The position numbers were made by a program, and so were the translations under genes. The notes below the pieces were generated by a model. It saw only the letters and a list, made by a program, of their open reading frames with translations. It had not been told where the DNA came from and made no database searches. From Candidatus Hadarchaeota archaeon (lineage in GTDB: Archaea > CAYQAE01 > CAYVLA01): DNA of 64,000 nt. Each line of letters starts with the position of its first letter. Position 1 is the first letter of the stretch. The DNA lies in the NCBI GenBank assembly GCA_964621445.1, contig CAZUNO010000011.1, positions 1 through 64,000 on the forward strand, in the 5' to 3' direction. Positions 9,396 through 63,577 of this stretch are shown here, piece by piece.

Positions 9396-12300
9396 CTACT
9401 CGCCGGGGTGGTAGTAGTCAATGGAGTTTATGCTGACCTCGCCCTTCTTTAGGTTCTCTATGGCGCTGATGGATGCCCGGGCCCCGGCCAGGGTGGTTAT
9501 GTAGGGTATCATAAGGTCCACGCTGGCCCTCCGGATCTTGAATCCGTCCCTGGACGCGCTTCCCCCCTTGGTTGGGGTGTTCACGATGAGGTCCAGCTCC
9601 CGGTCCCAGATCATCTCCAGTATCTCCGTGCTCCCCTCGCTGATCTTTCGCACCACCTGGATCGGTATGTCCGGGTGTTTGCTCCAAACGGCCTCCGCGG
9701 TGCCGTCGGTGGCAAGGATCTCGAATCCCAGCCCGTGGAAATCCTGGGCTATGTCAGGGATCTGTTCGTTGTCCTCGCTTCTGACCGATATGAGTATCTT
9801 GCCCGAGCTGGGCAGTTTCATGCCCGCCGAGACCTGTGACTTGTAGAAGGCCCTGCCGAAGTCGCTGTCTATTCCCATGACCTCTCCCGTGGACTTCATC
9901 TCCGGCCCCAGCTTGGGGTCCACGCCGGGCAGCTTTATGAACGGGAACACGGCCTCCTTGACAGAGAAGTGCTTGATATCCTTCCTGCCCACCATGCCCA
10001 GGTCCTTTAAGGTGTACCCGACCATGACCTGGGTGGCGATCTTGGCCAGGGGAACGCCCACCGACTTGGAGACGTAGGGTATGGTTCTCGACGCCCTGGG
10101 ATTGGCCTCCAGGACGTAGACCTGGCCGTCCTTGACCGCGTACTGTATGTTCAGGATGCCCACCACCTCAAGCTCCACGGCGATGGCCCTGGTGTAGTCC
10201 TCGACCTTCTCCAGAACCTCGTCCTCCAGGGACTGGGCGGGTATCACGCAGGCGGAATCGCCCGAGTGAACCCCGGCCTGCTCTATGTGCTCCATGATGG
10301 CCCCTATGAACACCTCCTCGCCGTCGGAGACGGCGTCCACGTCGAGCTCGATGGCGTTGTCCAGGAAGCGGTCGATGAGTATGGGGTGCTGGGGGGATAC
10401 GGAGACCGCCTCGTCTATGTACTCCTTCATTTCCTCCTCGTCATGCACGATCTCCATGGCTCGTCCCCCGAGCACGAAGCTGGGCCTGACCAGCACCGGG
10501 AAGCCGATCTCCATGGCTATTTTCATGGCCTCATCCCTCTTCATGGCGGTGCCGTAGGGGGCCTGGGGGATCTCCAGCTTGTTGAGTATCTCGGTGAACT
10601 TCTCCCGGTCCTCTGCCTTGTCTATGCTCTCCGGAGGGGTGCCCAGGATGTTAACCCCGGCCCGGGCCAGCTTGCCGGCCAGGTTGATGGGGGTTTGTCC
10701 GCCGAACTGAACGATGACTCCCCAGGGTTCCTCCCTGTCGATGACGTTCATCACGTCCTCGAAGGTCAGGGGCTCGAAGAACAGCTTGTCGGATATGTCG
10801 AAGTCGGTTGAGACCGTCTCCGGGTTATTGTTGATGACGATTGACTCGTAGCCCTCCTCCTCCAGGGTCATCACCGAGTGAACTGTGCAGTAATCGAACT
10901 CTATGCCCTGCCCTATCCTGATGGGCCCGCCCCCGATTATGGCCACCTTCTCCTTTTCGGAATCCGAGTGGAGCGCCTGGTCGGAACGGGGTTCGTAGGT
11001 GGAGTAGTAGTATGGCGTCCGGGCCTTGAACTCGGCGGCGCAGGTATCCACCATCTTGTAGGAGGGGGTCACTCCCTTTCTCTTCCTGGACCTTCTCTGC
11101 TCGAACTCATCGCTGTCCACGGCGTGGGCTATCTGCACGTCAGAGAAGCCCTTGCGCTTGGCCTCCCGGAGGAGCTTCTCGGGGACATCGCCCTTCTCCT
11201 CGCACATCCCAAGCCTGCGCTCGATGGACAGCAGGTCGTGCAGCTTGTCCAGGAACCAGGGGTCTATGCCGGTCAGGTCGTGGACCTCGTCCACGGTCAT
11301 CCCCCTGCGGAACGCCTCGTGTATGTAGAATATTCGCTGGTCGGTGGGCTCGGTTAGCTCGGTGACCAGCTCCTTCTTGGAGACCCGGGAGAACGCCTCC
11401 TGCTTGGGGTCGCAGCCGAAGCCGTACCTCCCGATGTCCAGGCTCCGTATGGCCTTCTGTATGGCCTCCTCGAAGGTCCTGGCCAGGCTCATGGCCTCCC
11501 CCGTGCCCTTCATCTGGGTTCCTATCCTGGTATCCGCGGTCCTGAACTTGTCGAAGGGCCACCGGGGTATCTTTGCCGCGATGTAGTCCAGGGTTGGCTC
11601 GAAGCTTGCCGGGGTCTCCTTGGTCACCCGGTTGGGTATCTCGTCCAGGGTCATGCCCACAGCGATCTTGGCCGATATTCTGGCTATGGGATAGCCGGTG
11701 GCCTTGGAAGCCAGCGCCGAGCTGCGGGAGACCCTGGGGTTGACCTCGATAACGTAGTAATCCCCGGTCTTGTTGGAGAAGGCGAACTGTATGTTACATC
11801 CCCCGTGAACCTTGAGGGCCCTGATTATCTTGAGCGAGGCCGTCCTCAGCCTCTGGTGGTCAACGTCGCTGAGGGTCTGCAGGGGGGCCACCACTATACT
11901 GTCCCCGGTGTGTATCCCCATGGGGTCGAAGTTCTCCATGGAGCACACTATGTTGCAGTTGTCATCGGCGTCCCTCATGACCTCGTACTCCATTTCCTGC
12001 CAGCCCTTGACCGACCTCTCGATCAGGACCTGCTTGGCTATGCTGGACTGAAGGCCACGTTCCACTACCTTTCTGAGCTCGGTATCGTTATCCGCCATGC
12101 CTCCCCCCGTTCCTCCCAGGGTGTAGGCGGGGCGGATGATCACCGGGTACCCGATATCCTGGGCGGTGTAGAGGGCCTCGTCCACGGTGCTCACCGCCCT
12201 GCTCTCGGGTATGGCCTCGCCTATCTTCAACATGAGGTCCCTGAACTTCTCCCGGTCCTCCGCGGTCTGTATGGTCTCCAGTGGGGTTCCCAGGAGCTCC

Positions 12301-12658
12301 ACGTTGTTCTCCTCCAGGACCCCCAGGGTACCGAGCTGGGCGGCTAGGTTTAGACCGGTCTGGCCACCGATGGTAGGCAGTAAACCGTCAGGTTTTTCCT
12401 TCTCGATTATGCCTGATACGATATCGGGGACCAGGGGCTCTATGTACACCTTGTCGGCCATCCCGGTGTCAGTCATGATGGTCGCCGGGTTGGAGTTGAC
12501 TAGAATTACCTCGTAGCCCTCTTCTCTAAGGGACCAACAAGCCTGTGATCCGGAGTAGTCGATTCCGAGGGCCTTGAGCCCTATTCGGCGGCTTGTCCGA
12601 TCACGATCGGTCCCGATCCTATGACCATTATCCTGTGGATGTCATCTCTTTTGGGCAC
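9396..12658 (-). CDS. carB: Carbamoyl-phosphate synthase large subunit, two exons (12658-12583 and 12562-9396), 1080 aa after splicing
   Basis: Exon 1 reads MPKRDDIHRIMVIGSGPIVIGQAAE from a GTG with upstream GGAGG; joined to exon 2 it gives F-DYSGSQAC...VNSNPATIMTD; duplicated ATP-grasp domains and a C-terminal MGS domain follow. Confidence 0.95.
12563..12582 (-). other. 20-nt archaeal bulge-helix-bulge (BHB) intron within carB mRNA
   Basis: mRNA CCGA-AU^A-GGGC-UCAAG-GCCC-UCGG-AA^U: 4-bp central helix CCGA/UCGG and two 3-nt bulges; cutting after the 2nd bulge nucleotide restores GAA-UUC-GAC (E-F-D). Confidence 0.88.
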
Positions 12659-12826
12659 CTGTCTCCTTCCTCCATGGAGTTTCACCTTTACTGGTGGTGA
12701 TTCAACCACATGGTTAGGGGTTAGAATAAAAATATGGCCATCAGGGCTTTTTGGCTCGGCAATTGACAATGAGGGGGGTGAATTAACGCTTTTATTGCCC
12801 AGACCGAATGTGGGCCGAGGTCTGGA

Positions 12827-12997
12827 ATGGAGGTCACTGCTAAATGTCCCTACTGCGGCAGATTGAGCACTTACCGGGTTAAGCCCAACGTGCGGAGGCT
12901 GGTCTCCTGTACCTGCGGTAAGGGGAGTTTCTACCTCAAGAGGGTGGATCGCATCGAAGTACTTGAGAGTACCGGGAATAATGGAGGGGTCGGATGA
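12827..12997 (+). CDS. Small zinc-finger protein (56 aa), not in ORF track
   Basis: MEVTAKCPYCGRLSTYRVKPNVRRLVSCTCGKGSFYLK...; CPxCG plus CxCG pair; GAGGT upstream. Confidence 0.7.
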   Translation: MEVTAKCPYCGRLSTYRVKPNVRRLVSCTCGKGSFYLKRVDRIEVLESTGNNGGVG

Positions 12998-13027
12998 ACC
13001 GGCTCCCCAACGGTTGCAGTGAGCTCG

Positions 13028-13580
13028 ATGAGGTTTCATGGATGGTGGCGGGAGTTCTGCCTGGGTCTGCTTCTGGTCCTGGCCTATACCGCGGTGAACC
13101 TGGCGTCCAGGGACCGGCGCCAGGTGGCCATGGAACACTCCCGGGACCTGATCCGTCTGGAGCAGAGGGCGGGATATTCGCTGAGCCCGGTTCAGGAACG
13201 TTTTCATCCTGTTCTCCCTAGCCTGCTTCCTGGTTTTCCTGCTGTATCCCTGGGCCTCTCCCCGGCTGATGGAGGGCTACGGGTTCGTGGACCTGTTGGA
13301 GCTGAGTTCGCCCCTGAGCTAGGGGACCGAGGGCCTCAGCCAGGCCCCAAACCCCTACGCCTCCATGCCCAGCGTCGCGCTCTTTGACGGCCTCATCTTC
13401 CGGGTGGCGGCCTTGTCCTACCCGGTGCTCATGCTGGTCTCCATCATACTGTCCGCCAACCACCTTTTCGTGGACTGTGCGGCCTCATTTGCGCTCCTGG
13501 TGCCCCTTGCTCACCTGGAGTCCAGGGACCTGACGAGATATTTAAAATGCCGCATCCAGAGGGCATTAGTAAAGCCGTAA
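13028..13580 (+). pseudogene. Decayed PAP2-superfamily (inositolphosphorylceramide synthase / PAP2_3-like) membrane protein
   Basis: Family-like pieces lie in different frames (LIRLEQRAG, LLYPWASPRLMEGYGFVD, NPYASMPS, SANHLFVD), with frameshifts, an in-frame TAG at 13320-13322 and loss of the MPS-LH histidine. Confidence 0.65.
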
Positions 13581-62131: not shown

Positions 62132-63577
62132 TCAGCCCTTGGTTACGGCCAGAGGCCTCAGCTTGGCGACTTTTCTGCTTATTCCCACCTTGTGGCAGAC
62201 ATCTACAACGTTATTAATGTCCTTGTAAGCGCCGGGGGCTTCCTCCGCGATCACCGGCATACTTGCAGCTTTAACTATGATTCCCTCCTTTTCCAGATCG
62301 CTCTGCACGGTCTCTCCCCAGAAGTTCTTCTTGGCCTTGGTGCGGCTGAGTATTCTGCCGGCGCCGTGACAGGTGGAGCCGAATGTCTCGTTCATGGCGG
62401 TCTCCGTTCCCACCAGCAGGTAGGAGGCGGTGCCCATGTCTCCGGGTATGATCACCGGCTGTCCTATCTCCGAATAGTCGTCGGGTATGGAGTCGCTTCC
62501 CGGGCCGAAGCTACGGGTTGCTCCCTTACGGTGTACGCATAGTTCCATATCCTCTCCATCTACGGTGTGATACTCCATCTTCCCGATGTTGTGGGCCACG
62601 TCGTAGACCATGCTCATGTCCAGGCTCTCCGGGCTCTCGCCAAGCACGTCCTGGAAGGTCTCCCTCACCCAGTGCATTATCATCTGCCTGTTGCCCCATG
62701 CGTAGTTGGCCCCTGCTGACATGGCCGCCATGTAGGAGTCGGCCTCCGGGGTGCCAAGGGGTGCACAGGCCAGCTCGCGGTCCGGGATGTCTATGTCGTA
62801 CTTCTTTACCGCTTTCTCCATAACCTTGAGGTAGTCGGAGCATATCTGGTGCCCGCAACCCCTGGAACCGGTATGTATCATGGTTGTTACCTGGTTCTCG
62901 TGATCTATCCCCATCACTTCGGCGGCTTTCTGGTCGAAGATCTTGTCCACGTACTGGATTTCCAGGAAATGGTTTCCGCTACCCAGACTTCCCAGCTGGG
63001 GGATCCCCCTTTTCTTGGCCCTGTCGCTGATAACCGAGGAGTCGGCCCTTTCCAGAGACCCGTTTTCCTCCATATGCTCCAGGTCCTCGTCCCAGCCGTA
63101 GCCGTTCTCCACGGCCCAGGCGGCACCTCTCTCCAACACCTGTTCTATCTCCCTGCTGTCCAGCTTCACCCTGCCCTTACTGCCCAGTCCGGAGGGGACA
63201 TTCTTGAAAGCTGTGTTTATTAGGGATTTCAGGTTGGACTTTATGTCCTCCTTGTCCAGGTTGGTGCGGAGCAGCCTGACTCCGCAGTTGATGTCATAAC
63301 CTATTCCACCGGGGCTTATTACCCCGTCCTCTGAGTCGAAGGCTGCCACCCCTCCGATGGGAAAGCCGTATCCAAGGTGGACATCCGGCATGGCCATGGA
63401 GTAATTGACGATGCCCGGGAGGCATGCGATATTGACCACCTGGCCTATGGTCCGATTGTCGATTTCCTTCAATAATTTCGAGTCAGCGATTACCCTCCCC
63501 GGCACCCTCATACAGTCCTTGTAGCTGGCGGGGATCTCGTGAACGAGTTCGGATATCTTCTTCATTTGGTTGCTCAT
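62132..63577 (-). CDS. rtcB: RNA-splicing ligase RtcB (no intein)
   Basis: [45 protein letters not shown] and EEAPGAYK motifs. Confidence 0.97.

Follow-up and report, generated by a model that had tools for sequence, protein, structure and literature searches.

The only carB gene found in the genome of this Candidatus Hadarchaeota archaeon is split near its 5' end by a 20-nt insert that has the strict hBHBh' form of an archaeal bulge-helix-bulge (BHB) intron. Very probably, the insert is an intron within the carB coding sequence that is removed from the pre-mRNA by the splicing endonuclease EndA together with the ligase RtcB and that has been inherited vertically; cleavage and ligation in vivo are what we infer from the sequences. 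This reading, put forward in an earlier note on the same DNA, is backed by inserts at the same site in relatives, covariation of the RNA helices, selection on both exons, a single-copy carB, and the presence of both enzymes in the genome. The window referred to below is the whole stretch of DNA that was analyzed (64,000 nt, positions 1 to 64,000 of contig CAZUNO010000011.1), and the coordinates of the features are collected in Table 1.

Table 1. Features of the interrupted carB gene and of the predicted splicing machinery. Positions are those of the window unless a contig of the host genome (G000) is named.
Feature	Position	Strand	Remarks
Shine-Dalgarno-like AGGAG	12663..12667	-	4 nt ahead of the carB GTG
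carB exon 1	12583..12658	-	GTG, 24 codons PKRDDIHRIMVIGSGPIVIGQAAE, and the U that opens the Phe codon
Candidate BHB mini-intron, 20 nt	12563..12582	-	Runs from the last base of bulge 1 through the inner hairpin and the central-helix 3' strand to the second base of bulge 2
carB exon 2	9396..12562	-	UC that ends the Phe codon, 1054 uninterrupted codons, stop
Complete h-B-H-B-h' motif	12557..12593	-	Unconstrained MFE fold and three-species consensus fold
Extended exon-exon helix, 9 bp	12545..12604	-	GUGAUCGGA 12604-12596 (exon 1) with UCCGGAUCAC 12554-12545 (exon 2)
rtcB, expected exon ligase	62135..63442	-	PF01139 positions 1-426 of 426, E 3.9e-183, no internal stops
Two-unit EndA, 373 aa	G000 C2:82920-83723 (L044:1468-2589)	-	Best full-length matches are dimeric enzymes
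Three-unit EndA, ~403 aa	G000 C9:29229-29699 (L045:832-2043)	+	End-to-end match with PDB 4FZ2, E 2.6e-74

The gene lies on the minus strand, and its GTG start codon (12658-12656) was read from the sequence; a GGAGG-type motif precedes the start codon in every clade member in the printed alignment. The earlier note had described an insert that divides the conserved GQAAE/FDYSG motif by 20 nt (12582-12563), with an in-frame UAG and a frameshift, and this description was confirmed base for base. The UAG (12583-12581) is composed of the exon-1 U and the intron AG, and the frameshift follows from the 20-nt length. Once the 20 nt are left out, the junction reads GAA-UUC-GAC (Glu-Phe-Asp), and a codon count of both exons (1 + 24 + 1 + 1054) gave the 1080-aa CarB that had been predicted from the cut rule. 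The GQAAEFDYSG motif is unbroken in the 21 intronless archaeal carB loci that were printed. Both sides of the insert are recognizable as CarB: a profile search matched the 25-residue exon-1 peptide to Pfam CPSase_L_D1, the pre-ATP-grasp domain, over positions 2-20 (E 6.5e-5), and exon 2 to the NCBIfam carB equivalog over profile positions 27-1051 of 1058 (E = 0).

Unconstrained MFE folding of positions 12610-12545 (-23.6 kcal/mol, with z at -2.2 and an equally good value in 3 of 200 shuffles) matched every detail of the structure that had been drawn beforehand. The outer helix AGCCG/CGACU pairs 12593-12589 with 12561-12557 and consists of 2 bp, one C-A mismatch and 2 bp, while the central 4-bp helix CCGA/UCGG pairs 12588-12585 with 12568-12565. 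Bulges of 3 nt lie on opposite strands, AUA at 12584-12582 and AAU at 12564-12562, and the inner hairpin occupies 12581-12569. EndA cleaves BHB motifs in their bulges, between the second and the third base of each. By our own reading of a motif scan, the same rule applied to the introns of the host tRNA-Phe(GAA), tRNA-Gly(CCC) and tRNA-Gly(UCC) (16, 15 and 18 nt, respectively) yields canonical 7-nt anticodon loops. Introns were called by aragorn in 26 of 42 host tRNAs, although these calls are noisy, with a strict motif of the same length present in only 10 of the 20 short ones in the motif scan. Several of the called tRNA introns are at non-canonical positions and a few are implausibly long (hundreds to 2214 nt), and the tRNA set looks heavily interrupted.

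Outside the motif itself, the two exons can also pair in an extended 9-bp helix, the role of which is uncertain because one of its pairs is lost in relatives with GGU. Exon-exon pairing was additionally considered as a mark of intron carriers and was dropped, since carriers and intronless genes overlap in pairing energy and G+C content acts as a confounder.

On the BHB-intron reading, the pre-mRNA would fold, from the last part of exon 1 through the intron into the first part of exon 2, as the strict helix-bulge-helix-bulge-helix, EndA would cleave both 3-nt bulges behind their second base, and RtcB would ligate the exons into an mRNA that carries GAA-UUC-GAC and encodes the full 1080-aa CarB. 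A ribosome translating an unspliced copy would be expected to halt at the UAG of the 5' splice site after 25 residues. Because the sole carB is interrupted after codon 25, arginine and pyrimidine synthesis most likely requires splicing of the carB mRNA. The intron is located only 76 nt into the coding sequence, where ribosomes under coupled transcription-translation could unfold the motif.

The enzymes expected to carry out these steps are encoded in the host genome, with rtcB located in the window itself. For EndA, PF01974 scored above the cut-off at two host loci, one predicted to encode a two-unit and the other a three-unit enzyme. PDB 4FZ2, to which the latter aligns over its whole length, is the epsilon2 enzyme of ARMAN-2; it has three units and cuts strict as well as relaxed motifs (PMC3488258). 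The occurrence of both EndA types within one genome seems unusual.

The earlier note had proposed that relatives be compared for variable inserts at the same carB site with compensatory pairing, and this comparison bore the proposal out, every clade member having an insert (17-21 nt) and the inner stem showing compensation. As represented in the genome collection, the phylum comprises five species. The sister species G003 and G001 carry inserts of 18 and 17 nt at the same carB site. For G002, a third family member with a 91% complete genome, the carB contig stops at residue 207 and a search with a 206-aa query did not recover the N-terminal part, and in G004, the one genome of the other family, carB is uninterrupted with carA upstream. 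Metagenome contigs were scanned with a pattern that specified only the flanking codons and a gap of 12-42 nt, with no structural requirement, and 32 loci with an insert at the same carB codon were recovered, 12 of them in the host clade. The BHB geometry fits all 32 inserts, and a complete fit from a structure-blind pattern indicates that the motif is more than chance. Over all loci, the same-site inserts range from 17 to 39 nt.

Within the clade alignment, all 15 rows have an insert at this site, with lengths of 17, 18, 19, 20 and 21 nt, and all 10 distinct sequences have intact flanks. These introns share a 5' AGGG and a 3' CCC-U/G-CGGAA, their loops vary, and the BHB cut restores Glu-Phe-Asp at every insert length. 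A CarB tree of 59 rows, from which rows shorter than 250 aa (L065 and L080 among them) were left out, grouped the host-clade rows, 13 of 13 with the intron, with a support of 100 and the intronless G004 as their sister. In a small other phylum of which 17 genomes were scanned, the carB site was contiguous in all nine carB genes found. The comparison of these sequences places the intron in the clade ancestor, from which it would have been inherited vertically since.

Covariation was evaluated in an alignment of 12 distinct phase-1 sequences, with the structure supplied by the analyst. Standard pairs filled 96.5% of the cells, four pairs were changed on both sides, and the covariation score was reached by none of 500 shuffles; in a control with the partners slid by 1-3 columns, pairing was only 25-46%. 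Among the same 12 rows, the central helix was paired in 97.9% and the outer helix, including its C-A mismatch, was invariant in 12 of 12. The inner helix, of 3-5 bp, showed compensatory changes, with the fourth inner pair seen as C-G, G-C, A-U and U-A. When all 32 inserts are considered, the exon strand of the central helix tracks the Ala, Gly or Glu codons of its host gene (GCCG, GCGG, GGCG, CCGA, CUGA) and the intron strand complements it; all four central pairs are standard in 29 inserts, with one mismatch at the outer end in the other three. An A-G mismatch at the last pair of the central helix in G003 and in a relative of ~95% identity represents a departure from the strict motif.

These data also bear on the possibility that translational recoding, i.e., bypassing, frameshifting or stop readthrough, carries the ribosome across the insert without splicing. 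Phage T4 gene 60 has an arrangement of take-off and landing codons for bypassing, and the carB insert is superficially similar, with a GAA followed by UAG and a hairpin, and a second GAA 21 nt downstream. However, landing on the second GAA would leave the ribosome in the wrong frame (UCG ACU next), and the matched codons that restore the frame in a gene 60-type bypass are absent. The clade lengths of 17-21 nt span all three values modulo 3, and a single recoding event cannot serve all of them, while readthrough would add 6-7 residues in place of the Phe of the invariant GQAAEFDYSG. Recoding also leaves the covariation of the helices unexplained, and we consider it very unlikely.

Synonymous sites are near-invariant for ~21 nt on either side of the intron (12545-12604, minus strand). 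Third positions are variable in 4 of the 14 junction-proximal codons, seven on each side, vs 54 of 60 codons farther out, and the Fisher value of 8e-6 for this comparison is an overstatement, as the sequences are kin and one of the 14 codons is fixed by the search pattern. RNA structure, or alternatively past gene conversion, seems to restrict codon choice around the intron.

The host genome was assembled from a metagenome as a draft of 89 contigs, its completeness estimated at 96% and its contamination at 4.2%, and a draft of this kind invites the question of whether the insert is an assembly or sequencing artefact. The earlier note had held that DNA lacking the 20 nt would point to such an artefact. 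In a second sample of the same study, one contig runs across the insert with 0 differences, and contigs from another study, ~95% identical, keep a 20-nt insert with three substitutions and no indel; two of the substitutions are in the loop, and one makes an A-G out of the A-U pair that ends the central helix. Among the DNA contigs aligned there, none skips the insert, and the sequencing runs listed for window positions 12300-12900 included none of RNA. Since these independent assemblies retain the insert, and since three species genomes and 12 clade metagenome contigs carry it with differing loops, the probability of an artefact is negligible. A second intact carB, which had been named, in combination with a lack of spliced transcripts, as weighing against splicing, was sought in the host genome and none was found.

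An in-frame stop and a frameshift, in a clade where carA no longer adjoins carB, might alternatively be taken as signs of a dead or dying gene whose resemblance to a BHB motif is incidental. The pattern of substitutions does not agree with a pseudogene. Across the 10 distinct clade sequences, variable sites at the first, second and third codon positions numbered 3, 2 and 16 in the 24 codons of exon 1, and 20, 9 and 89 over the initial 100 exon-2 codons; this strong bias towards third positions indicates that purifying selection maintains each exon as a protein-coding sequence in its own frame. The 1054 codons of exon 2 are open, with an amino-acid identity of 77-80% between species, and the insert is kept with intact flanks in 10 of 10 distinct clade sequences. 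Additionally, carA is intact in the host, on another contig, with no second carB in the genome to take over, and the splice geometry fits all 32 same-site inserts. A decaying gene is accordingly very improbable as an account of the locus.

The two parts of the gene could in principle be made separately, as a 25-residue exon-1 peptide and a truncated CarB that act jointly or alone. Exon 1 comes with a start codon and a Shine-Dalgarno motif of its own, and in the exon-2 frame the longest ORF that opens with a start codon, an ATG at 12476, would encode 1026 aa. Such a truncated CarB, however, would be without ~54 pre-ATP-grasp residues, the invariant GSGPIxIGQAxEFDYSG among them, and the 28 codons from the intron to this ATG are conserved as protein. 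A split protein would also leave the covarying RNA structure unexplained, and we give this alternative hardly any weight. Removal of the insert as a BHB intron is the explanation retained in what follows.

Beyond the host clade, the 20 remaining inserts fall in at least five further CarB clades that are interleaved with intronless ones, and the CarB tree needs eight state changes, at least six of which are forced by well-supported branches. At 18 of these 20 loci the insert is in phase 0, i.e., one base earlier, and the outer helix is nearly absent, as in relaxed forms of the motif. Loci L076 and L085 have the phase and the outer helix of the host clade, but their central helix is CUGA/UCAG.

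At seven of the 20 non-clade intron loci, carB is immediately preceded by an endonuclease gene of the same orientation. These genes are located between carA and carB, ~60-1400 nt upstream of the insert, and end shortly before exon 1 in another frame; the distance from the carB-linked endonuclease gene to the intron is about 75 nt. They represent two families, one LAGLIDADG-like (L076, L085, L084 and, by blastp only, L064), with members 31-61% identical and associated with both intron phases, and one with HNH repeats (L072, L077 and L082). The exon-1 frame of L072 has stops ~100 nt before the insert, and this copy may be N-terminally degenerate. At 26 intronless loci, the largest upstream ORF was carA (22), FtsZ (2), NurA (1) or thiolase (1), with no endonuclease among these largest ORFs. 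A homing-endonuclease gene within or beside the intron was likewise not found in the host clade, in contrast to the seven of 20 same-site introns of other lineages. A tblastn search for endonuclease remnants with the seven carB-linked endonucleases gave a best E of 0.49 near carB at 10 clade loci, and nothing at E <= 1e-3 genome-wide.

These associations suggest, tentatively, that the Glu/Phe codon of carB is a recurrent archaeal landing site of a two-part selfish cassette, consisting of a free-standing homing endonuclease just ahead of carB and a BHB mini-intron that interrupts, and so shields, its presumed target in the sequence coding for the invariant GQAAEFDYSG, and that the host intron is an orphan which became fixed across a phylum-level clade after loss of the endonuclease. 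We hold this origin to be possible, with the odds somewhat against it. Under such a scenario, both parts would spread through repair of cut intronless alleles, the host tRNA-splicing machinery would bear the cost, and the codon usage around the host intron would by now be locked by the RNA fold. In the 'collaborative homing' of T-even phages, a free-standing homing endonuclease is paired with an endonuclease-less intron, and the endonuclease genes directly upstream of 7 of the 20 non-clade carB introns are reminiscent of this arrangement. The two systems differ in that the carB intron would be a protein-spliced BHB intron rather than a group I ribozyme and that the cutting of intronless carB by the endonuclease is putative. 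They differ further in that the host clade has no endonuclease gene near carB or, by tblastn, genome-wide.

Canonical archaeal tRNA introns carry the BHB at position 37/38. The carB insert shares their geometry, cut rule and approximate size (cf. the 16-, 15- and 18-nt host tRNA introns above), and differs in that its substrate is an mRNA in which coding sequence supplies one central-helix strand and both outer-helix strands. With coding strands inside the motif, codon choice and RNA structure constrain each other.

The archaeal mRNA intron named in the earlier note, that of cbf5 in Crenarchaeota, agrees with the available portions of PMC2738675 and PMC7714728. In Desulfurococcales and Sulfolobales, the gene for this pseudouridine synthase contains an intron of 16-44 bp with a BHB-like fold that is processed by EndA, as described in the accessible text of these reports (Watanabe 2002; Yoshinari 2006; Yokobori 2009, PMC2738675). 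As far as those accounts extend, the carB and cbf5 introns are alike in being short, in lying in coding sequence, in being too small to encode anything, in their recognition (predicted for carB) by EndA, and in their gain or loss among related lineages. They differ in the host gene, in the occurrence of the carB intron outside Crenarchaeota, and in its strict 3-4-3 motif with both flanking helices, compared to a motif called 'BHB-like' in the part of PMC2738675 available. The same text links that motif to a heterotetrameric EndA, whereas the carB host has a two-unit and an epsilon2-type enzyme. Splicing of cbf5 has also been demonstrated experimentally, according to these sources, whereas that of carB is deduced.

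In the text available of Schwarz 2020 (PMC7714728), cbf5 is given as the only reported case beside the intron that these authors describe in the 5' UTR of Haloferax volcanii HVO_1309. That transcript is likewise an EndA mRNA substrate outside Crenarchaeota, but, as presented there, its intron is located in an untranslated leader, whereas in carB the coding sequence is broken. A 2025 structural paper on splicing endonucleases (PMC12397907) cites the three cbf5 papers. The IRE1-dependent splicing of HAC1/XBP1 (PMC4090602, available in part) offers a further parallel, as a short non-spliceosomal mRNA intron with joining by a tRNA ligase and a change of frame; its endonuclease is IRE1, its RNA motif is another one, and it serves regulated stress signaling. 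A full-text literature search, with a coverage that ends short of subscription journals, found no description of a BHB intron in carB, and in the literature searched the only archaeal BHB introns in coding sequence were those of cbf5, in Crenarchaeota only. The mechanism and the motif are already known; the novelty lies in the gene and the lineage that carry the intron, in how strict the motif is, in its recurrence at a single codon, and in the association with endonuclease genes elsewhere.

As a second gene beside cbf5, carB would demonstrate that the splicing of mRNAs by the tRNA machinery is no isolated case. CarB is a single-copy enzyme of central metabolism, the lineage is distant and uncultured, and several unrelated CarB clades have been hit at the same codon. 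Gene callers are expected to report a broken or truncated carB in these genomes, and arginine and pyrimidine auxotrophy may be scored wrongly as a result. The natural variants of 17-21 nt would provide a compact substrate set for studies of EndA specificity and of a race between splicing and translation.

The suggestion that other apparently broken genes of the host might hold BHB inserts was not borne out by a genome-wide ab initio screen, which returned 12,926 loose motifs vs 13,026 for a mirror-image control motif. No excess emerged after open-frame and codon-usage filters either (12 vs 15 at score >= 0.2), and the screen has little power because carB itself ranked only about 25th. The host cbf5, metK and rtcB genes were examined for interruption and all were uninterrupted. 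Together with the lack of an excess in the screen, these three genes give no ground for regarding mRNA splicing as general in the host. The top candidate of the screen (C1 45134-45156) was rejected, as it looks, from the sequences alone, like the boundary of two adjacent MrpF/MrpG-like membrane-protein genes. A 21-nt BHB-like stretch with an in-frame stop was observed at C57:6785-6805 on the minus strand (L092), between 320 and 836 open codons, and may represent a second interrupted gene or two adjacent genes.

In the clade, the upstream neighbors of carB are a small zinc-ribbon ORF and then a divergent PAP2_3 gene. A 208-aa ORF at 12581-13207, in the exon-1 frame, was rejected as a shadow frame, with a family match only at its exon-1 end and an antisense position to the zinc-ribbon and PAP2 genes. 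The zinc-ribbon ORF of the host (window 12827-12997, plus strand), located between PAP2 and carB, encodes 56 aa with CPYCG and CTCG motifs; it is kept in the sister genome G003 and is without a family assignment. The PAP2_3 membrane-phosphatase gene (window 13019-13580, plus strand) is 245-276 aa long in relatives, and in the host it lies in two frames (ORFs 13019-13387 and 13365-13580), being either frameshifted or affected by a sequencing error.
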